From NCBI GenBank assembly GCA_017549405.1, contig JAFYUY010000090.1, positions 1 through 41,811 of the forward strand: DNA of 41,811 nt, in the 5' to 3' direction. Origin of the DNA: Clostridia bacterium. GTDB taxonomy: Bacteria > Bacillota > Clostridia > Oscillospirales > CAG-382. Positions 1,593-37,152 of this stretch are shown here, in pieces. Every line of letters begins with the position of its first letter. The stretch's first letter is position 1. Made by a program: the position numbers and the translations under genes. The notes beneath the pieces are model-generated. The model saw nothing but the letters and a program-made list of their open reading frames with translations. It made no database searches and was not told where the DNA came from.

Positions 1593-2207
1593 ATGACAGA
1601 TCAAAGCACTCTTGCCACGTTTGTGTGGGTGGTCTTTTTAGGCGTGTGCTTCGGTGCGTTTTATGCATATTATCACAGAAGACTTCTTGGTGATATTCTG
1701 CGCACTTTTATAGCTTACGGTGCAGACAGCGAACAAAACGCCCTCACCCTTGCAAACATTGGCTATGGTGAGGGAATAAAGCATACTTTTGCAAAATTTG
1801 CCCTCAGACGCAGTTCGGTGCTGCGAAAAACGATCCACACTGTTTACGAAGAAAAAGCACCCGTAAAAAAGGATCCCGATGAACTTTTTGCAAAAGCTCC
1901 GAAGCTGCCTTGCGAACAGAGATATTACATTCCCGAGGAAAAACGCATTACAGCCGAGATACGTTATGACGGCAAAGGAACAACCGCATCCACCCTTATT
2001 ATTACCGTGGCGGTATTCTTTGCAGTGGCAATAATTGCCGTATCGCTTTTGCCATGGATAATACGAAATTATCACAACCTCACAAACTTTGCCGGCAGTC
2101 AAGAAGAAACCATAACAGCCGAACAAAACGAAGGACCTGAAAGCGTTGACGGCAATGCTCCCGAAGACACTCAAAGCACTGTTCCGAACTACGCTCTCCC
2201 TCAATAA
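1593..2207 (+). CDS. Hypothetical membrane protein with two predicted TM segments
   Basis: RBS GGAGG precedes the ATG. Hydrophobic segments are FVWVVFLGVCFGAFYAYY and LIITVAVFFAVAIIAVSLLPWII, followed by an acidic C-terminal tail. I recognise no family. Confidence 0.6.
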   Translation: MTDQSTLATFVWVVFLGVCFGAFYAYYHRRLLGDILRTFIAYGADSEQNALTLANIGYGEGIKHTFAKFALRRSSVLRKTIHTVYEEKAPVKKDPDELFAKAPKLPCEQRYYIPEEKRITAEIRYDGKGTTASTLIITVAVFFAVAIIAVSLLPWIIRNYHNLTNFAGSQEETITAEQNEGPESVDGNAPEDTQSTVPNYALPQ

Positions 2208-2232
2208 AAACTTAAAAGGAGTCTTACTGTTT

Positions 2233-3057
2233 ATGAGACAGACAAGAATCAAGATCCACTTAACTCTTATAATCCTTATTTCAGCGCTTGCCGTGACTGC
2301 AATATTCGGCATTGTTCTCAATATATTCGGAATACGTTATTTCAAAGCAGATAACGGTTCTAAGTTTCTTGGCATCACAAAGGACGGTGTGGTGCTTTCG
2401 GGAACGATAATGCTTCCCGACGGAACAAAGGCAAAAATAGACCGCGCACGCGGAGTCATTGAGTATTCCAACGGGGATATATATGACGGTGAGTTTTCCG
2501 GATTTTACCGCAACGGACAAGGTCACATGACCTATGCCGCCACAGGCGATACCTATGAAGGTCAATTTTCCGACGATAAGATGTCGGGCAAGGGCATATA
2601 CCGCTCTGCCGACGGAAGTGTTTATGACGGAGAGTTCCTTGACGGCAAGAAATCGGGAACGGGAAAATATATCTGGAGCGACGGAAGCACATACGAAGGC
2701 GGATTCCTTGAAAACCGCAAAAACGGCAGCGGAAAGTACCACGGTGCCGACGGCGCGGAATATGTGGGCGATTACGAAAACGACCGCAAAAACGGCAAAG
2801 GAACCTACACTTACCCTAACGGCGATAAATATATTGGCGACTTTGTGGACGATATGCGTCAGGGACTCGGTACTTATATATGGGCAAACGGCGAAAGCTA
2901 TGTGGGAGAATTTCTCGGCAACATGAAGCACGGCAAGGGTGTTTACAAATGGCCCGCTCCCACCGAACGAAGCTATGACGGCTACTTTGAAAACGGTACC
3001 CTTATTATAACAGACCCCGCTCAAGAGCAGGGAGCAGATGTGCAAACAGAACAATGA
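2233..3057 (+). CDS. MORN-repeat protein with an N-terminal TM anchor
   Basis: Tandem YxGxxxxxxxxGxG repeats are present (YDGEFSGFYRNGQGHMTY, YEGQFSDDKMSGKGIY, YDGEFLDGKKSGTGKY and others). I chose the internal ATG at 2233 (MRQTRIKIHL...) because AAAGGA lies upstream and it avoids overlap with the preceding gene. Confidence 0.85.
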   Translation: MRQTRIKIHLTLIILISALAVTAIFGIVLNIFGIRYFKADNGSKFLGITKDGVVLSGTIMLPDGTKAKIDRARGVIEYSNGDIYDGEFSGFYRNGQGHMTYAATGDTYEGQFSDDKMSGKGIYRSADGSVYDGEFLDGKKSGTGKYIWSDGSTYEGGFLENRKNGSGKYHGADGAEYVGDYENDRKNGKGTYTYPNGDKYIGDFVDDMRQGLGTYIWANGESYVGEFLGNMKHGKGVYKWPAPTERSYDGYFENGTLIITDPAQEQGADVQTEQ

Positions 3058-3872
3058 ATGCGAATATTTTTGAAAGTAATAACAGTATGTGCATCCTTGA
3101 AGGTATGATATCCGTTGAAGCGGCTGTGAAATACAAAAGCCGTAAAGTGGATATATGCTATGTGGATGCCGCAAAAGTGAAGAAGCGCGACCGCAAGGTG
3201 CTCTCATTCTTAAAGCTTCTGCGAGAAAATAATATTTCCGCAGAGATTTGCGACCGCGAAATTATAGATGCTTTTCTCGACAAAAACGACAAGGACGCGG
3301 GCAATACCCATGGCGGAATCGTTGCGGTATGCGGAAATCGAAGATTTATCTCAGCCGAAGCTCTGCTTGAAAAAACAGCAAAAGAGCAAGGTTTTTCCGT
3401 GGTGCTCGACGGAATAGAAGACCCCTTCAACTTGGGATATTCCGTGCGCAATCTTTATGCCGCGGGAGTCTGCGGCATATTTATCCCTGCCCGCAACCCC
3501 CTGACATCGGCGGGAATCTGCGCACGCTCTTCGGCAGGAGCATCTGAAATGTGCGACATTGCAACACTTCCGCAATTTGACGGGACTTTTTCACAAGCCG
3601 ATTTTGTTTCAAAGATAAAAGAATACGGGATCTCCACCGTGTGTGCTGCAAAAACTGCAGATTGCACCGAAATGTTCTCGTTTTCTCCAAAATTTCCCGC
3701 AGTTCTTTTTATCGGCGGAGAAAAGCGCGGAATTTCACCCGAATTTGTGGAAAACTGCGACAACATCGTAAGCATTCCTTATTTTTCCGATGCAAGGTTT
3801 TCGCTCCCCGCAGCTTCAACTGCGGCAATACTCGGATTTGAGCTTGCGCGGCACAGATTTATAAAAAAATAA
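3054..3872 (+). CDS. TrmH/SpoU-family RNA 2'-O-methyltransferase (RlmB-like)
   Basis: SpoU methylase motifs are present (VLDGIEDPFNLGYSVRN, LFIGGEKRGISPEFVENCDNIVSIPY). The ATGA start/stop overlap with the upstream gene is plausible. An internal start around 3087 is possible. Confidence 0.8.
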   Translation: MNANIFESNNSMCILEGMISVEAAVKYKSRKVDICYVDAAKVKKRDRKVLSFLKLLRENNISAEICDREIIDAFLDKNDKDAGNTHGGIVAVCGNRRFISAEALLEKTAKEQGFSVVLDGIEDPFNLGYSVRNLYAAGVCGIFIPARNPLTSAGICARSSAGASEMCDIATLPQFDGTFSQADFVSKIKEYGISTVCAAKTADCTEMFSFSPKFPAVLFIGGEKRGISPEFVENCDNIVSIPYFSDARFSLPAASTAAILGFELARHRFIKK

Positions 3873-30800: not shown

Positions 30801-32354
30801 TTACTCTGTCTGCATATCAAGCTTGAATGTTATATCAAGCTCTCCTTCACCATCGCGGTACACAGTGATTGTAACCTCATCTCCGGGGTTGAATTTGGTT
30901 TTTTGAGAATTCAGTTCGTCCATTGTCTGCACTTTTTTGCCGTTGAACTTTACGATGATATCTCCGCGGCGAAGTCCCGCACCCGCTGCAGCACCATTTT
31001 TATTTATCTGTATAACGAGCACTCCGCGGGGGATCCCGTAATACTTTGCCTCGTCCTCGGTGATGTCGGAGCCCTGTATGCCAATGGAAGCCTTGCCTGT
31101 AACAAGTCCGTCGCTTCTGTCGGATACCTTGCCGTCGGTTATGAGCTGGTTCATTATCTTGATGGCACCGTTGATGGGTATTGCAAAACCGATGCCTTCA
31201 TATTCTGCAGTAAGCTTCAACGTGTTGATGCCTATTACCTGACCGTAGCGGTTGATAAGGGGACCGCCGGAATTTCCGGGGTTTATGGTGGCGTTGGTCT
31301 GGATAAGATTCATAGTCTTTACCACTCTTCCGTAGCCGTCTGTTATATCTATCTTGCGGTTTACGGCAGAAATTATACCGTCGGTAAATGTGCCTGCAAG
31401 CTTTATCTGGGCAGGAGTGCCGATAGCAACCGCAAGATCTCCGACACGCAGATCATCGGAATTTCCGCGCTCCATGACCGGAAGACCCGTAGCTTCGATC
31501 TTCACAACAGCAATGTCGGTTATTGCATCCGCTCCGATAAGCTTTGCTTCATGCTCGGTGCCGTCGTTAAGGACAACAGTTATGGAAGTTGCACCATCTA
31601 TAACGTGATTATTTGTGGCAATGTATCCGTCCTCGGAAAGAATAAATCCCGAACCAACCCCCTTTGTGGTGTATGTCATGCCAAAATAAGAGGGAACTGT
31701 GGCTTCAACCATTATACCCACAGCGCTGGGTGTGCATTTTTCGGCTATCTGATTGAGGGTAAGCGCTTTTTTGTCGCCCGCCACGCTAACGACTTCTTCC
31801 ACTTCGTCATCGGTGTTTTCGCTCTGTGAGGGAATATCCATATGAAATACTTCCTCGGGAATTCCGTCATCGGAATCAAAGGCACCCAGCTTTTCGGCTA
31901 TCATAAATCCGGTAAAAGCCATAAATGAAAGGGTAAATGCCGCGGCAATTATGAGCGCCCACACGCGCAAAGCTCCGGCTCGCTTTTTGGGTGGCTGTGC
32001 GGCATAATCGCAAGTATATGCGCCCGTGCCCTTTTCGGCATTGTAAATGAGTTCAGCCGCAGGCTCCTGCTCGGGATAAGAGCTCTTCATCTGATTCTTG
32101 CCCGGGTTTACAAAGAAATTCTGCTCGTCGCGGAATGAATATTCCTCGGGAGCATTTTTTCCGCAAGGTTCTGTTTCCGCAGTATCACGGTTTTGTTCTT
32201 CGATAGCTTTCATTACTTCGTCCATGTTTTCGGCATCTACCTCAAGGGACTTTGCGTCAGACGGATCTGCGCCCTGATGTTCATTATTTTCAAGACTGTT
32301 ACGAAGCTCTTCTTCGAAAACATTATCTTCGTTGTTTCTTCTGTTTTCTTCCAT
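30801..32354 (-). CDS. htrA: HtrA/DegP-family serine protease with a PDZ domain
   Basis: An acidic N-terminal region and a TM segment (VWALIIAAAFTLSFMAFTGFMIA) are present. Trypsin-like triad context: ATNNHVIDGA, D in AITDIAVVKI, GNSGGPLIN. The C-terminal PDZ segment reads GLRRGDIIVKFNGKKV. Confidence 0.9.
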   Translation of the reverse strand: MEENRRNNEDNVFEEELRNSLENNEHQGADPSDAKSLEVDAENMDEVMKAIEEQNRDTAETEPCGKNAPEEYSFRDEQNFFVNPGKNQMKSSYPEQEPAAELIYNAEKGTGAYTCDYAAQPPKKRAGALRVWALIIAAAFTLSFMAFTGFMIAEKLGAFDSDDGIPEEVFHMDIPSQSENTDDEVEEVVSVAGDKKALTLNQIAEKCTPSAVGIMVEATVPSYFGMTYTTKGVGSGFILSEDGYIATNNHVIDGATSITVVLNDGTEHEAKLIGADAITDIAVVKIEATGLPVMERGNSDDLRVGDLAVAIGTPAQIKLAGTFTDGIISAVNRKIDITDGYGRVVKTMNLIQTNATINPGNSGGPLINRYGQVIGINTLKLTAEYEGIGFAIPINGAIKIMNQLITDGKVSDRSDGLVTGKASIGIQGSDITEDEAKYYGIPRGVLVIQINKNGAAAGAGLRRGDIIVKFNGKKVQTMDELNSQKTKFNPGDEVTITVYRDGEGELDITFKLDMQTE

Positions 32355-32468
32355 AATATATACCTCCGTGTGTTTATAAAACGCAATGAGTTTGAGTTTT
32401 CTTCATGTTATGGCTTTATTATAAAGCTTTATTTTGTAAAATCCATGATATCTTTGTGATGATTTTGT

Positions 32469-32483
32469 GATTTTTTGAAATTT
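32469..32483. promoter_or_regulatory. Weak CodY-box-like motif upstream of the ilvE leader promoter
   Basis: GATTTTTTGAAATTT matches AATTTTCWGAAAATT at 12 of 15 positions. It lies 34 bp upstream of the -35. Confidence 0.3.
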
Positions 32484-32516
32484 ATCGTAAAATCAAAAAA
32501 AATCTCCGCATAACCC

Positions 32517-32545
32517 TTGACAAATCGCATTTTGGGTGGTATAAT
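32517..32545 (+). promoter_or_regulatory. Consensus sigma-A promoter
   Basis: TTGACA (32517-32522), an exact 17-nt spacer, then TGgTATAAT (-10 at 32540-32545 with an extended TG). Both hexamers are perfect. Confidence 0.8.
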
Positions 32546-32576
32546 ATTCGACATATTGATAAAGGGAGTATTACAC

Positions 32577-32693
32577 ATGTTAGCCTCAGCAGTTAATTTC
32601 GGTATAATTTGCATCGGCTTTATTATCGCTATTATTATTGCGCTTGCAGTCATTATAAGCAGCAATCAGTGTAGCGCTATTTGTCGTGCATAA
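32577..32693 (+). CDS. Small ORF of 38 codons encoding an Ile-rich hydrophobic peptide; candidate ilvE leader peptide
   Basis: Absent from the ORF track because it is under 60 aa. GGGAG lies 8 nt upstream of the ATG. Translation: MLASAVNFGIICIGFIIAIIIALAVIISSNQCSAICRA. Eleven of 38 codons are Ile. It sits about 25 nt downstream of the predicted start site of the consensus promoter. Confidence 0.45.
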   Translation: MLASAVNFGIICIGFIIAIIIALAVIISSNQCSAICRA

Positions 32694-32742
32694 AACCTGA
32701 AATTGCTATTGGGTGCTCCTTTAAAGTATCTAAGTAATTTTT

Positions 32743-32780
32743 AAGGCTTGCGGCATTTAGCTGCAAGCCTTTTGTTAATT
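32743..32780 (+). terminator. Intrinsic terminator or attenuator immediately upstream of the ilvE RBS
   Basis: 12-bp stem AAGGCTTGCGGC/GCTGCAAGCCTT including one G-U pair, with loop ATTTA, followed by TTTGTTAATTT. The ilvE GGAGG RBS begins at 32782. Confidence 0.7.
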
Positions 32781-32794
32781 TCGGAGGAAAGAAA

Positions 32795-33865
32795 ATGCTT
32801 GATATCAGTATCACAAAAACAACTTCTCCCAAGGCAAAGCCTGCGGATGAAACAAAACTCGGTTTCGGAAAAATATTCACCGACCACATGTTTATCATGA
32901 ACTATACCGAGGGAAAGGGCTGGCACGATGCCCGCATCGTACCCTATGCCCCCATCAGCCTTGAACCCTCCGCAATGGTATTCCATTACGGTCAGGAAAT
33001 GTTTGAAGGTCTTAAGGCTTACCGCGGCAAGGACGGAAAATCCCGTCTGTTCCGCCCTGACATGAACGCAAAGAGAGCGAACGAATCCAACAAGCGCCTT
33101 TGCATTCCCGAAATTCCCGAAGAGGATTTCGTTCAGGCAATAAAAGCACTTGTTAAAGTTGACGAGGACTGGATCCCCTCGGCTGAAGGAACATCCCTTT
33201 ACATTCGTCCCTTTGTTATTGCAACGGATGAGTTCCTCGGTGTTGCTCCTTCCAAAACCTATCTGTTCATTATAATTCTCGCTCCCAGCGGAGCATATTA
33301 CGCATCCGGTCTTGCTCCCGTTGGTATCTGGATCGAGGACGAATATGTGCGCGCGGTAAAGGGCGGTATCGGCTATGCCAAGACCGGCGGAAACTACGCT
33401 GCAAGCCTTAAGGCTCAGGTAAAGGCTCACGACGACGGATATTCCCAGGTTCTGTGGCTTGACGGTGTTGAGAGAAAATACATCGAAGAAGTAGGTGCCA
33501 TGAACATCTTCTTCAAAATAGACGGAAAGATCGTGACCCCCATGCTCAACGGCAGCATCCTTCCCGGCATCACCCGTAACTCTGTTATCCACCTTTGCAA
33601 GTCCTGGGGACTTGAAGTGGAAGAACGCCGCATTTCCGTGGATGAGCTTATTGAAGCCCAGAAGAGCGGAAAGCTTGAGGAATGCTTCGGTACAGGTACT
33701 GCAGCTGTTATCTCTCCCGTCGGCAAGCTCCGTTACAAGGATGATGTTATGACCATCGGTGACGGCGGCATCGGCAAGACAAGCCAGATGATATATGACA
33801 CCGTAACGGGCATTCAGTGGGGTACCGCCGAAGACAAGTTCGGTTGGTCACTCGTTATTGAATAA
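32795..33865 (+). CDS. ilvE: Branched-chain amino acid aminotransferase
   Basis: Class IV aminotransferase features of long-form BCAT are present: FTDHMF, FHYGQEMFEGLKAYR, RPDMNAKR, AKTGGNYAASL, GITR, GTAAVISPV. Confidence 0.95.
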   Translation: MLDISITKTTSPKAKPADETKLGFGKIFTDHMFIMNYTEGKGWHDARIVPYAPISLEPSAMVFHYGQEMFEGLKAYRGKDGKSRLFRPDMNAKRANESNKRLCIPEIPEEDFVQAIKALVKVDEDWIPSAEGTSLYIRPFVIATDEFLGVAPSKTYLFIIILAPSGAYYASGLAPVGIWIEDEYVRAVKGGIGYAKTGGNYAASLKAQVKAHDDGYSQVLWLDGVERKYIEEVGAMNIFFKIDGKIVTPMLNGSILPGITRNSVIHLCKSWGLEVEERRISVDELIEAQKSGKLEECFGTGTAAVISPVGKLRYKDDVMTIGDGGIGKTSQMIYDTVTGIQWGTAEDKFGWSLVIE

Positions 33866-34533
33866 TGAAACGCATAACAATATTCGCAGGTCATTACGGA
33901 AGCGGAAAAACCAACGTTGCCGTAAACTATGCCCTTTCATTGGCGGACAGTGGACTTCGCGTTTCCCTTTCCGACCTTGACATCGTAAACCCGTATTTCC
34001 GCTCCAAAGACAGCGAAAAGATACTTTCCGATGCGGGCATACGCTTTATATCCTCGGAGTACGCAAACTCCAATGTGGACGTTCCCGCGCTGCCGCCCGA
34101 GGCATATGCCGTGACCGCAGATAAAGAAAGCTTTGCCGTGGTAGACGTTGGCGGAGATGACAGAGGTGCGCTTGCTCTTGGGCGTTATGTGCCTTCGATC
34201 ATTGAAGAAAACAACTACGAAATGCTTTTTGTGGTAAACAAGTTCCGCCCGTTAACAAAAGATGCGGCGGGCGCACTTGAAGTAATGCGCGAGATAGAAT
34301 ATGCCGCAAAGCTTAACTTTACAGGCATAGTAAACAACTCCAATATCGGTGATGAGACAACGGTTCAGGATATTTTGTCATCGGTCTCTTATGCCGAGGA
34401 GATATCCCGCATTACAGGTCTTCCGGTGAAGATGACTTCCGTTCATTATTCGCTGGAAAAGGAGCTTTTGGGAAAGATACCCGATATTTTCCCCATAAAG
34501 CTTTATATACGTCAGACCTGGAAAGATAAATAA
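33865..34533 (+). CDS. P-loop NTPase of the MinD/ParA/Mrp-like superfamily, function unknown
   Basis: N-terminal Walker A MKRITIFAGHYGSGKTNVAVNYAL. A Walker B-like segment FAVVDVGGDD is present. A TAATG overlap couples it to the ilvE stop. The protein contains no cysteine. Confidence 0.7.
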   Translation: MKRITIFAGHYGSGKTNVAVNYALSLADSGLRVSLSDLDIVNPYFRSKDSEKILSDAGIRFISSEYANSNVDVPALPPEAYAVTADKESFAVVDVGGDDRGALALGRYVPSIIEENNYEMLFVVNKFRPLTKDAAGALEVMREIEYAAKLNFTGIVNNSNIGDETTVQDILSSVSYAEEISRITGLPVKMTSVHYSLEKELLGKIPDIFPIKLYIRQTWKDK

Positions 34534-34571
34534 TTCCAACCATCGTAAAAAACAGAAAGGACCATAAAACT

Positions 34572-34775
34572 ATGGCAAAAGTCACATTCAAAGAGGACCT
34601 TTGCAAAGGCTGCGGTCTTTGCGTGGGTGCCTGCCCTAAAAAAATTGTAAAACTTAAAACAGAGATCAACGCAAAGGGTTATAACCCCGCTACCGTTGAA
34701 GACCAGTCTGCCTGCATCGGCTGCGCTTTCTGCGCCACCATGTGTCCCGACTGCGTAATTACTGTCGAAAAATAA
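34572..34775 (+). CDS. 2-oxoacid:ferredoxin oxidoreductase delta subunit (2x[4Fe-4S] ferredoxin)
   Basis: Two CxxCxxCxxxCP motifs are present: CKGCGLCVGACP and CIGCAFCATMCP. Confidence 0.85.
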   Translation: MAKVTFKEDLCKGCGLCVGACPKKIVKLKTEINAKGYNPATVEDQSACIGCAFCATMCPDCVITVEK

Positions 34776-34791
34776 CAGGAGGAACATAAAA

Positions 34792-35859
34792 ATGTCAGAT
34801 AAAGTCCTGATGAAGGGCAACGAAGCCCTTGCAGAAGCTGCCATCATGGCAGGCTGCCGACACTATTTCGGCTACCCCATCACTCCTCAGACCGAGGTTG
34901 CGGCATACATGGCAAAAAGAATGCCCAAAATAGACGGTGTTTTTCTCCAGGCAGAAAGTGAGATTGCCGCAATAAACATGGTTATAGGCGTTGCCGCAAC
35001 AGGCAAGCGTGTTATGACCTCCAGCTCTTCTCCCGGAATCTCCCTCAAGAGTGAAGGTGTTTCCTTCCTCGCGGGCTGTGATCTTCCCGCTCTTATTGTA
35101 AACGTTCAGCGCGGAGGCCCCGGTCTTGGCGGTATCCAGCCCTCCCAGGCGGATTATTTCCAGGCAACACGCGGCATGGGTCACGGAGATTTCCACCTTC
35201 TCGTTCTTGCACCCGCTTCCGTTCAGGAAATGGTAAACCTTGTGTTTAAGGGATTTGATCTTGCGGAAAAATACAGAATGCCCGCTATGATACTTTCCGA
35301 CGGAACCATGGGTCAGATGATGGAGCCTGTAAGCCTTGATGCTCTTGAAGTAAACGAGCATGACAAATCATGGGCACTCACCGGCACAAAGTGCGAAAGA
35401 AAACCCAATATTGTAAACTCCCTTTGCCTTAAGGCTGAAGAACTTGAATATCTCAATGTGGAACGCTACAAGCGTTATAAGATGGTTGAAGAAAACGAAG
35501 TTATGTACGAAGAATACCGCATGGAAGATGCAGAGATCTGCATCGTGGCATTCGGTGTTGCGGCACGTGTTTCTCAGAATGCCATCGACAAAGCTCGTGA
35601 GCAGGGCATAAAAGTCGGCATGATTCGCCCCATCACCCTGTGGCCCTTCCCCAAGAAAGTTCTTCGTGAAGCGGCTGAAAAGGTTCGCGCATTTGTTTCC
35701 GTGGAACTTTCCATGGGTCAGATGATCGAAGATATTGAGCTTGCAACACGCTGCAAAAAACCCGTATTGCTTTGCTCCAGAGTTGGCGGCATGATCCCCT
35801 CCACCGAGGACGTTCTTGCCAAGATCAACGAAGCAAATTCCATTGGAGGTAACAACTGA
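34792..35859 (+). CDS. 2-oxoacid:ferredoxin oxidoreductase alpha subunit
   Basis: The N-terminus MKGNEALAEAAIMAGCRHYFGYPITPQTEV is typical of POR/KOR/VOR alpha subunits. Confidence 0.9.
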   Translation: MSDKVLMKGNEALAEAAIMAGCRHYFGYPITPQTEVAAYMAKRMPKIDGVFLQAESEIAAINMVIGVAATGKRVMTSSSSPGISLKSEGVSFLAGCDLPALIVNVQRGGPGLGGIQPSQADYFQATRGMGHGDFHLLVLAPASVQEMVNLVFKGFDLAEKYRMPAMILSDGTMGQMMEPVSLDALEVNEHDKSWALTGTKCERKPNIVNSLCLKAEELEYLNVERYKRYKMVEENEVMYEEYRMEDAEICIVAFGVAARVSQNAIDKAREQGIKVGMIRPITLWPFPKKVLREAAEKVRAFVSVELSMGQMIEDIELATRCKKPVLLCSRVGGMIPSTEDVLAKINEANSIGGNN

Positions 35860-36614
35860 TGACAACGGTATTTTCAAAGCCCGAGGCTCTTACAGATGCA
35901 CCGCTTCACTACTGCCCCGGCTGTACACACGGCATAATCCACAGACTTGTTGCCGAAGCCATTGACGAGCTCGGCGTGCGCGGCAGAACCATCGGTGTTG
36001 CATCTGTCGGATGTTCTGTTTTCACATACAACTACTTCAACTGCGACATGGTTCAGGCGGCTCACGGCCGTGCCCCCGCTGTTGCAACGGGCGTTAAGCG
36101 TTCGGACTCCAACAACATAGTATTTACTTATCAGGGCGACGGTGACCTTGCAGCCATCGGTACTGCCGAAACCGTTCATTCCGCAGCACGCGGTGAAAAC
36201 ATCACCGTCATTTTCGTAAACAACGCGATCTACGGTATGACAGGCGGTCAGATGGCTCCCACCACACTCCCCGGACAGGTAACACAGACCTCTCCCTACG
36301 GACGTGACGTAAACACCGTGGGATTCCCCGTTAAGGTCTGCGAAATGCTCTCAAAGGTTGACGGTGCAACATATCTTGAACGTGTTGCAGTAAATAACGT
36401 TAAAAATGTCCGTGCCGCAAAGGCAGCTATAAAGAAGGCTTTCCAGAACCAGATCGAAGGCAAGGGCTTCTCTCTTGTTGAAGTTCTTTCCACATGTCCC
36501 ACAAACTGGGGTATGACTCCCGATAAGGCTCTTACCTGGCTTGAAGAAAACATGCTTCCTTATTATCCCCTTGGTGTTTATAAGGATAAATATGCGGAAA
36601 GCGAGGTAAAATAA
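35859..36614 (+). CDS. 2-oxoacid:ferredoxin oxidoreductase beta subunit (TPP-binding)
   Basis: CPGCTHG, the TPP motif GDGDLAAIG...NNAIYGMTGGQ, and an ATGA overlap with the alpha subunit gene. Confidence 0.9.
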   Translation: MTTVFSKPEALTDAPLHYCPGCTHGIIHRLVAEAIDELGVRGRTIGVASVGCSVFTYNYFNCDMVQAAHGRAPAVATGVKRSDSNNIVFTYQGDGDLAAIGTAETVHSAARGENITVIFVNNAIYGMTGGQMAPTTLPGQVTQTSPYGRDVNTVGFPVKVCEMLSKVDGATYLERVAVNNVKNVRAAKAAIKKAFQNQIEGKGFSLVEVLSTCPTNWGMTPDKALTWLEENMLPYYPLGVYKDKYAESEVK

Positions 36615-36615
36615 C

Positions 36616-37152
36616 ATGACAAATCAGATCCTTTTTGCCGGTTTTGGCGGTCAGGGTATCCTTTTCTCCGGGAAATTCCTTGCTTATGAAGGTCTTCTTG
36701 CTGACAAGGAAGTAAGCTGGCTTCCCTCTTACGGCCCCGAAATGCGCGGAGGAACCGCAAACTGCAGCGTTATTATCAGCGATACAAAGATCGGTTCTCC
36801 CATTGTAACAGAACCCGATATGCTTATCGCCATGAATCTGCCCTCCCTTGACAAATACGAAAATGACACCGCAAAGGGCGGAAAAATATTTGTGGACAGC
36901 TCCCTTATATCCAAAAAAGTTGAGCGCAACGATGTTGAAGCTTATTACATTCCCGCAACATCCCTTGCATCGGAAAACGAGCTTCCCGGTCTTGCAAACA
37001 TGATAATGCTGGGCTATGTTATCAAGAAAACAGGCATCATGCCCATAGAGAACATTGACCGTGCTCTTGCAAAAGTGGTTTCCGCAAGAAAGCAGAACCT
37101 TCTTGATGCAAACAAAAAAGCTCTGGAGCTTGGCTACAACTACGCCGAATAA
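36616..37152 (+). CDS. 2-oxoacid:ferredoxin oxidoreductase gamma subunit
   Basis: [17 protein letters not shown]...[18 protein letters not shown] is typical of gamma subunits. Confidence 0.9.

Follow-up and report, generated by a model that had tools for sequence, protein, structure and literature searches.

A probable isoleucine-sensing leader-peptide attenuator upstream of an ilvE–ferredoxin oxidoreductase operon in Clostridia

We analyzed a stretch of 41,811 nucleotides from a Clostridia bacterium (contig JAFYUY010000090.1 of assembly GCA_017549405.1; hereafter the window), focusing on the region directly upstream of its ilvE gene, which encodes a branched-chain aminotransferase. This region probably contains a ribosome-mediated transcription attenuator, in which the translation of a short leader peptide rich in isoleucine (Ile) would sense Ile and thereby set the read-through of a terminator in front of ilvE. 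What speaks for this reading is the order in which the parts are arranged, the conservation of this arrangement and of its Ile codons in related genomes, the alternative pairings available to the leader RNA and some covariation within these pairings.

The element opens with a sigma-70-type promoter, the only perfect promoter site in a 3-kb scan, from which transcription would start near 32552 (Table 1). Soon after this start follows a short open reading frame (ORF) with its own Shine-Dalgarno (SD) sequence and start codon, an arrangement that is kept in all 12 leaders compared below. The encoded peptide contains 11 Ile, compared to 2 Leu and 2 Val. Ile makes up 29% of the leader peptide but only 6.7% of the residues encoded by the genes of the window (binomial P ~3e-5), and it represents 61% of the I/L/V/F/M residues of the peptide compared to 24% in the genes (P ~8e-4). 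Thus, the enrichment in Ile exceeds general hydrophobicity. Furthermore, 7 of the 11 Ile codons in the leader are ATT, whereas this codon accounts for 26% of the Ile codons in the neighbouring genes. The ORF is followed by an intrinsic terminator, whose hairpin (32743-32771; -20.4 kcal/mol) has 7 G-C pairs and a 5-nt loop and runs into TTTTGTTAATTT. As expected of an attenuator, this terminator lies between the leader ORF and ilvE with no promoter after it: no promoter-like site was found between the leader-ORF stop and ilvE, either in the window or in the 11 related leaders. A preliminary description of the window had reported the promoter, the 38-codon ORF with its 11 Ile codons and its ATT-ATT-ATT run, the 12-bp hairpin with a U-tract ahead of the ilvE SD sequence, and the lack of a separate promoter for ilvE, and all of these were borne out.

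Table 1. Positions of the leader features upstream of ilvE in the window
Feature	Position	Strand	Details
Sigma-70-type promoter, TTGACA (32517-32522), 17 nt, (TGg)TATAAT (32540-32545)	32517..32545	+	score 12/12 plus TG before -10
SD sequence of leader ORF, GGGAG	32564..32568	+	8 nt 5' of ATG at 32577
Leader ORF, 38 codons + TAA, encodes MLASAVNFGIICIGFIIAIIIALAVIISSNQCSAICRA	32577..32693	+	11 Ile codons: 7 ATT, 2 ATC, 2 ATA
Core Ile run, ATT ATC GCT ATT ATT ATT (I I A I I I)	32622..32639	+	ATT-ATT-ATT at 32631-32639
Region 1, 5' strands of intra-leader helices	32597..32641	+	UUUCGG 32597-32602, GCAUCGGC 32611-32618, CGCUAU 32627-32632, AUUGC 32637-32641
Region 2	32662..32699	+	GCAAU 32662-32666, GUAGCG 32671-32676, 18-mer AGCGCTATTTGTCGTGCA 32673-32690, TAA 32691-32693, CC 32696-32697
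Antiterminator 5' strand, UGUCGUG	32682..32688	+	proposed
Spacer hairpin P3, outer stem GAAAUUGCU / AGUAAUUUU	32699..32741	+	between stop codon and terminator
Antiterminator 3' strand, GG and UGCGGCA	32745-32746 and 32749-32755	+	proposed; within terminator
Intrinsic terminator, 12-bp stem + U-tract	32743..32782	+	5' arm 32743-32754, loop 32755-32759, 3' arm 32760-32771
SD sequence GGAGG (32783-32787) and ilvE, ATG 32795	32783..33865	+	class IV branched-chain aminotransferase

We fetched 80 loci encoding IlvE at 79-95% identity. In most of these, ilvE is located directly behind another gene, often one for an AMP-dependent acyl-CoA synthetase; only two of them (L001 and L002) share the small ORF, and one more (L011) has an analogous ORF. 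A sequence search using the terminator alone, with the ORF excluded from the query, returned eight genomic matches (L001, L002, L121, L172, L186, L200, L201 and L202), and every one of the eight has an Ile-rich ORF upstream and ilvE downstream. The complete unit of promoter, SD sequence, Ile-rich ORF, terminator and ilvE is therefore present in eight other species-level genomes of uncultured Oscillospiraceae or Clostridia, and the alignment of ilvE-upstream regions that the preliminary description had recommended shows the small ORF, the Ile run and the terminator to be kept in all eight. A metagenome scan returned only the contig of L002, which was already known, and the matches listed by a scan with a degenerate 19-mer were mostly chance. 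In the following, the window and these eight matches are called the nine close leaders; two distant homologues (L098 and L231) bring the number of homologues to 11, and the analogous leader of L011 that of leaders to 12.

The nine close leaders could be aligned from the -35 hexamer to the ATG of ilvE. The -35 hexamer, the TG and the -10 hexamer are kept in all nine with a spacer of variable sequence, and the promoters of the three more distant leaders score 11/12. The SD sequence and the ATG of the leader ORF are likewise kept, with AAGGAG, GGGAG or GAGG at the equivalent SD position in 12/12 leaders. Indels within the leader ORF measure 3, 3 and 6 nt and are all in frame. The sequence ATCGCTATTATTATTGC, encoding I-A-I-I-I-A, is present in eight of the nine close leaders, with TCCGCTATAATTATTGC in its place in L201; the Ile positions of the ORF switch only among ATT, ATA and ATC, and the Ala at codon 22 is retained via GCG, GCA, GCC and GCT. 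Ile accounts for 53-71% of the I/L/V/F/M residues in the nine close peptides, again compared to 24% in the genes, and runs of III or IIII occur in 12/12 leaders, written in other codons in the distant ones. At the end of the ORF, AGCGCTATTTGTCGTGC(A/G)TAA (S-A-I-C-R-A-stop) is kept in the nine leaders, as is the terminator. The genes downstream of the leader recur in all loci, whereas the HtrA-like gene that precedes the leader in the window was seen at none of the other loci.

A profile of the nine leaders detected the two distant homologues over nearly their full length (nhmmer E 1e-10 for L231 and 3e-7 for L098). Their peptides read MNMSAFHAANILLLIAIIILAIIKQSKNSAVCRALR in L231 and MNAISLVFEIIIISVVILPVITGFENSAVCRATENRA in L098, and the Ile run is III in the former and IIII, in other codons, in the latter. 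Both leaders retain the 18-mer AGCGCTGTTTGTCGTGCA, which there is not located at the C-terminus of the ORF, and the 5' arm of their terminators contains CUGCGGCA. Both precede a divergent gene of the LeuA/CimA family with HMGL-like and LeuA_dimer domains, followed in L231 by an acyl-CoA-synthetase fusion and then by the same ilvE operon. The two LeuA/CimA-family genes (L098 1500-2876, minus strand; L231 ~1684-3072) score below all NCBIfam cut-offs, and their N-terminus reads ISDITLA or ITDITLK, at a place where we take the usual motif to be of the DTTLRDGEQ type. The fusion is an 820-residue ORF (L231 3074-5536) located between the LeuA-like gene and ilvE, and consists of a ~250-residue N-terminal domain and an acyl-CoA-synthetase-like C-terminal part (...FPMNAAGKILKYKMRE). 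In L011, a promoter, an SD sequence, the ORF MFSISFQSAMIIIISAVYFLNVVIRKGAAL with an IIII run in other codons, and a terminator are found on the same ilvE operon. The nhmmer profile of the nine leaders did not detect this leader; we therefore dropped L011 as a member of the family and treated it as analogous.

An Ile-rich ORF followed by a terminator could also be a gene of its own, encoding a small membrane peptide or a type-I-toxin-like peptide, in which case the Ile residues would form a transmembrane helix and ilvE would be expressed by unregulated leak-through. Consistent with this, the leader peptide is hydrophobic and includes a run of ~23 residues, enough for a helix, its N-terminal A-S-A and its F-G are retained through synonymous changes, and one copy has been called as a gene (P0001, unnamed, corresponding to the L001 peptide). 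This copy is the only one called in the protein collection, and it was also the only protein matched in a search with the 58-residue, TTG-extended form of the ORF. However, peptides with such a share of Ile do not look like a generic helix, in which more Leu would be expected, and what the distant homologues have in common is the Ile run plus the RNA element of 18 nt, not the whole peptide. Moreover, in every copy the unit leads into a branched-chain amino-acid operon without a promoter behind it, at a position where relatives carry T-boxes (see below). With regard to a toxin, no promoter-like site is found on the minus strand over or just after the ORF, as a type I toxin-antitoxin pair would have it, and the C-terminus carries a single charged residue, unlike that of typical type I toxins. 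The preliminary description had mentioned a membrane peptide or toxin as an alternative; we found no specific support for it and consider it highly improbable.

We also asked whether the leader belongs to a catalogued RNA family. Rfam returned no relevant family at a permissive E-value over 32300-32900 and none at gathering score across the window; the best Rfam 15 match in 32300-32900 was to an unrelated family (22.8 bits compared to a cut-off of 50). In particular, cmscan found no T-box (RF00230) in this region even at E <= 10, and Stem I, the specifier loop and the T-box sequence are absent from the window leader. In two relatives, L016 and L010, Rfam T-boxes (102.6 and 97 bits; L016 2631-2865 and L010 2665-2907) are located directly upstream of ilvE in the same operon. 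The specifier position was read from the cmscan alignment with the order GAA, codon, purine, stem, GAGC as a guide; on this reading, the specifier appeared to be AUC-A (Ile) in L016 and GUC-G (Val) in L010. T-boxes with branched-chain specifiers in sister species imply that the operon is there controlled by branched-chain tRNA charging, and the leader element of the window occupies exactly the T-box location of these relatives. To judge from these sequences, closely related species may differ both in the amino-acid signal and in the type of sensor that controls this operon. Altogether, the conserved unit, the Ile runs in varied codons, the in-frame indels, the T-boxes in relatives and the branched-chain amino-acid genes behind the distant homologues support the leader-peptide attenuator that the preliminary description had put forward.

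Consensus folding of the nine leaders with RNAalifold predicted the terminator together with a long interrupted hairpin within the leader. In this hairpin the strands of region 1, which interleave with Ile codons 10, 11, 13, 16, 17 and 19-21, pair with those of region 2: UUUCGG (codons F8-G9) with CCGAAA just past the stop, GCA with UGC, CGCUAU of the Ile run with AUAGCG, and AUUGC with GCAAU. In the alignment 97% of the cells of these helices are paired, compared to 28-42% in slid controls, as would be expected for the competing pairings of an attenuator. Compensatory change occurs at two pairs, where UUUCGG/CCGAAA is replaced by UUUCAA/UUGAAA in L002 and L121, which amounts to one evolutionary event; the pair-count measure for region 1 with region 2 was not significant. 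In the same consensus a pair of the terminator stem covaries between G-C, G-U and A-U across the leaders. The 18-mer within region 2 is near-invariant, including its synonymous sites, in all eight matches of the terminator search, the exceptions being a G at its beginning in L201 and a G at its end in L200 and L201, and it is predicted to pair either with region 1 or with region 3. A possible 4-bp hairpin with an 8-nt loop, GCGC-UAUUUGUC-GUGC (32673-32688), was seen in several constrained folds, and its loop is kept (UAUUUGUC or UGUUUGUC) beyond the need of the proposed pairings.

A different way to explain the leader is a translation-independent RNA switch, in which a protein, ligand or RNA binds the near-invariant 18-mer, presented as the 4-bp hairpin with its UAUUUGUC loop; such binding would select the antiterminator or the terminator, and the ORF would be incidental. 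Consistent with a switch, AGCGCU(A/G)UUUGUCGUGCA is fixed at synonymous sites, also where it lies away from the end of the ORF, the whole transcribed leader folds better than shuffled sequences (z = -3.06), and energy alone fails to single out the antiterminator proposed below. However, the SD sequence, the ATG, the frame and the Ile runs are kept where nucleotides differ, which is not expected of an incidental ORF, and the stop codon always falls on or close to the proposed antiterminator 5' strand. Together with the lack of any Rfam match, the T-box included, these observations make a switch of this type unlikely in our view.

The spacer between the stop codon and the terminator forms a hairpin, P3, that was predicted separately in every leader. 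The interior of P3 differs between leaders; the outer stem changes in sequence yet keeps its pairing, and compensatory changes occur at five pairs of the hairpin. In alignment A1, the P3-containing helix has 90% of its cells paired, and the whole proposed antiterminator 93% compared to 33-50% in slid controls; the five compensatory pairs of the antiterminator are all located within P3. For the antiterminator, the RNA was folded from UGUCGUG to the terminator loop, i.e. before the 3' arm of the terminator exists, by unconstrained minimum free energy. In 10/12 leaders the resulting structure pairs UGUCGU(G) with GCGGCA(U) of the terminator 5' arm around P3; the version in L011 reads GUCGCGG with CUGCGGC, and in L200 and L201 the terminator arm pairs with the neighbouring GUGCGUAA, forcing of UGUCGUG with UGCGGCA costing 1.4 kcal/mol. 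The antiterminator helix encloses P3 and a short helix, CC with GG in the main group and GG(U) with (A)CC in L098 and L231, and the alignment consensus truncated at the terminator loop gives the same helix. In every leader, the stop codon lies inside or beside the antiterminator 5' strand. In L002 and L121, C to U changes after the stop are matched by G to A changes in region 1 and are still wobble-paired to the fixed GG of the terminator arm, and L098 and L231 retain the 5'-arm core UGCGGCA despite different 3' arms; both observations fit a segment that pairs with two partners. The antiterminator as modelled here is a reasoned proposal rather than a demonstrated structure, and we advance UGUCGUG with UGCGGCA as its specific pairing tentatively, thinking it slightly more apt to be wrong than right.

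The preliminary description had named another competitor for the terminator, GCTTGCAG in the ORF pairing with CTGCAAGC in the 3' arm. Within the window this pairing does exist, and no other duplex with the 3' arm is stronger (-15.2 kcal/mol). Most relatives lack it or carry a deletion there, and we rejected GCTTGCAG as a conserved antiterminator: L002 and L121 have lost the segment, and L172, L186 and L202 have a different sequence. Also rejected was a pairing of the leader SD region (CGCAAGG) with the terminator 5' arm, which is present in L172, L186 and L202 only. As for covariation, for which the preliminary description had suggested a test, it was found in P3, in one terminator pair and in two pairs of region 1 with region 2, whereas the key antiterminator helix is invariant.

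The end of the ORF might also act through the peptide itself. S-A-(I/V)-C-R-A could be a nascent-chain pause or arrest sequence that holds the ribosome on the antiterminator 5' strand, besides or instead of stalling at Ile codons, and in line with this all 11 homologues read SA(I/V)CRA in one and the same frame, and its last Ala persists where GCA has become GCG. However, conservation at the RNA level explains this equally well, as synonymous sites do not vary either; the motif lies 2-5 codons before the stop in L098 and L231, and the analogous L011 reads a similar RNA in another frame. To our knowledge there is no known arrest motif like SA(I/V)CRA, and we find an arrest of this kind very unlikely. 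In a Firmicute-type cell, RNA polymerase normally outruns the ribosome, and AGCGCU(A/G)UUUGUCGUGCA, read as S-A-(I/V)-C-R-A, might, beyond being an antiterminator strand, be a programmed ribosome pause or arrest, or a factor-binding site, that retains a ribosome on this strand; together with P3 as a polymerase pause, it would enable attenuation in spite of this. This, too, strikes us as improbable.

A number of results weigh against a ribosome-mediated attenuator, or at least against its structural part. In ribosome-masked equilibrium folding, which the preliminary description had proposed as a check, the terminator formed with a probability of ~1.0 with the ribosome absent, stalled or at the stop, and the scenarios were not told apart; the arm-pairing probabilities differed modestly between the stall and the stop-codon scenario, which represents a weak trend. 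The gain from the antiterminator is only ~-6 to -10 kcal/mol. When the UGUCGUG segment was replaced with random 22-mers from the window, the arm was sequestered equally in 4-37% of trials, and the antiterminator pairing is therefore not statistically distinctive. Furthermore, UGUCGUG with UGCGGCA is invariant in the 11 homologues, without covariation except for a one-sided change in L002. Since the truncated alignment predicts the antiterminator even without a ribosome, the role of the pairing between region 1 and region 2 is uncertain. Variable columns of the leader ORF are distributed 20/17/23 over the three codon positions, without a clear coding signature, which is what one expects of a largely free leader-peptide sequence overlaid by RNA constraints. 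Finally, all sequences compared come from metagenome-assembled genomes. In the trp leader of Escherichia coli, the terminator is likewise more stable than the antiterminator. The same is true of Rli60 of Listeria monocytogenes, a validated attenuator, with -17.1 kcal/mol for the terminator and -10.3 kcal/mol for the antiterminator (PMC5864092), and because of this the equilibrium result is not decisive against attenuation.

In the attenuator that we propose, the strong promoter would fire and the 38-codon ORF would be translated while RNA polymerase nears the terminator in front of ilvE. With Ile plentiful, the ribosome would reach the stop and cover UGUCGUG, UAA and AACC, that is, the antiterminator 5' strand; the terminator 5' arm would then be free to form the 12-bp hairpin, and transcription would stop before ilvE. 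With Ile-tRNA scarce, the ribosome would instead stall at Ile codons 10-27, within the first two thirds of the ORF, where it would mask region 1 and leave region 2 free. P3 would form first and zip outward through CC with GG and then through UGUCGUG with UGCGGCA, and the 5' arm held in this way would delay the terminator just enough to permit read-through into ilvE and the oxidoreductase genes. If the ORF were not translated at all, the pairing of region 1 with region 2 would compete with the antiterminator. We only infer that the ORF is translated, that the ribosome stalls, that the structures compete kinetically and that read-through responds to isoleucine or Ile-tRNA charging.

The surroundings of the promoter hold two further features. 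In six of the nine close leaders (L001, L172, L186, L200, L201 and L202), a conserved element, TGTGAATTTTT-N-A-N-AAAAAT, adjoins the -35 hexamer, and a copy resembling TGTGAATTTTT sits further upstream in the window, at ~32466-32487. Of the 15 positions of the CodY box AATTTTCWGAAAATT, the element matches only 11-12, in AT-rich DNA, and it could represent a second, protein-mediated layer of control or an AT-rich chance match. In addition, a 78-residue antisense ORF (32429-32665, minus strand) lies opposite the promoter and the initial two thirds of the leader ORF; the promoter scan showed no site that would serve it.

The product of ilvE scores 507 bits against NF009897 and 416 bits against TIGR01123, and has Pfam matches too. 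The gene heads a cluster (window 32795-37152) that further encodes a ParA/CbiA-like P-loop ATPase, a 4Fe-4S ferredoxin and the alpha, beta and gamma subunits of a 2-oxoacid:ferredoxin oxidoreductase, and the gene order is identical in L010, L011, L016, L091, L107, L121, L172, L186, L201, L202 and L231. In many relatives, a gene for an AMP-dependent acyl-CoA synthetase lies directly 5' of ilvE. The cluster looks like one for turning branched short-chain fatty acids into branched-chain amino acids by reductive carboxylation and transamination.

Leader-peptide attenuation is textbook knowledge in Proteobacteria, while the amino-acid operons of the Oscillospiraceae/Acutalibacteraceae group are usually assigned to T-boxes. 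With the enterobacterial attenuators of ilvGMEDA (ilvL) and ilvBN (ivbL) and the trp/his paradigm, the element shares a short ORF close to the promoter in which codons for the regulating amino acid abound. It further resembles the ilvL type in its hydrophobic peptide of the 32-residue class (the ilvL peptide is MTALLRVISLVVISVVVIIIPPCGAALGRGKA), in the location of the terminator just before the first structural gene, in the predicted overlapping pairings of regions 1 with 2, 2 with 3 and 3 with 4, and in the stop codon beside region 2. However, there is no sequence similarity to the ilvL type, and the phylum differs, the element being found here in Clostridia. Its leader is essentially Ile-only, it precedes ilvE and a 2-oxoacid:ferredoxin oxidoreductase operon and not an ilv biosynthetic operon, and it has the extra, covarying P3 and an antiterminator that is weak and predicted.

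Closer in phylogeny, Rli60 of the L. monocytogenes ilv-leu leader and the ilvD leader of Staphylococcus aureus are, like the proposed element, Firmicute ribosome-mediated attenuators of branched-chain amino-acid genes; the S. aureus leader contains three Ile codons and is mupirocin-responsive (PMC5794164). Their peptides are shorter (13 and 26 residues) and mixed in branched-chain residues or Leu-rich, they precede the ilv-leu operon and ilvD, and CodY acts alongside them. Neither Rfam nor sequence comparison matched the window leader to Rli60 or to the S. aureus leader. Upstream ORFs of ilvB have been described in Corynebacterium (PMC10272879, PMC11857589), and paralogues of hisS in Bacillus have His leader peptides, with switches from T-box to leader peptide noted by Naville and Gautheret (PMC2965389). 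The T-boxes of L016 and L010 have the same position and the same operon as the element of the window, and the class of signal (branched-chain tRNA charging) and the output of terminator versus antiterminator that are proposed for this element; a T-box senses tRNA directly, whereas the window element would do so via the translating ribosome. By analogy, the window locus would be a switch of sensing system of the kind described in PMC2965389.

The preliminary description had regarded an Ile attenuator as unusual in a Clostridium-type genome, T-box leaders and CodY being the classical controls of such genes in Firmicutes. For Firmicutes this was overstated, as Listeria, S. aureus and Bacillus all have attenuators that were shown or inferred to be ribosome-mediated. 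Our literature search returned no such leader in Clostridia or Oscillospiraceae, and none before ilvE; together with the known Firmicute cases, this indicates that the family is new and uncatalogued and that the mechanism is not new. The 38-codon ORF should accordingly be annotated as a leader peptide and not as a hypothetical membrane protein, and the leader family could become an Rfam-type model.

If our reading is true, Clostridia, namely the Oscillospiraceae or Acutalibacteraceae of gut and rumen, gain a clear instance of classical leader-peptide attenuation that is backed by comparison of genomes. A T-box and a leader peptide seem to have replaced one another at a single operon, in species that share ~80-95% identity in IlvE. 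Moreover, the ilvE-ferredoxin-oxidoreductase cluster would be marked as isoleucine-regulated, which would support a biosynthetic role of this cluster in uncultured gut anaerobes, probably through the reductive carboxylation of branched short-chain acids.

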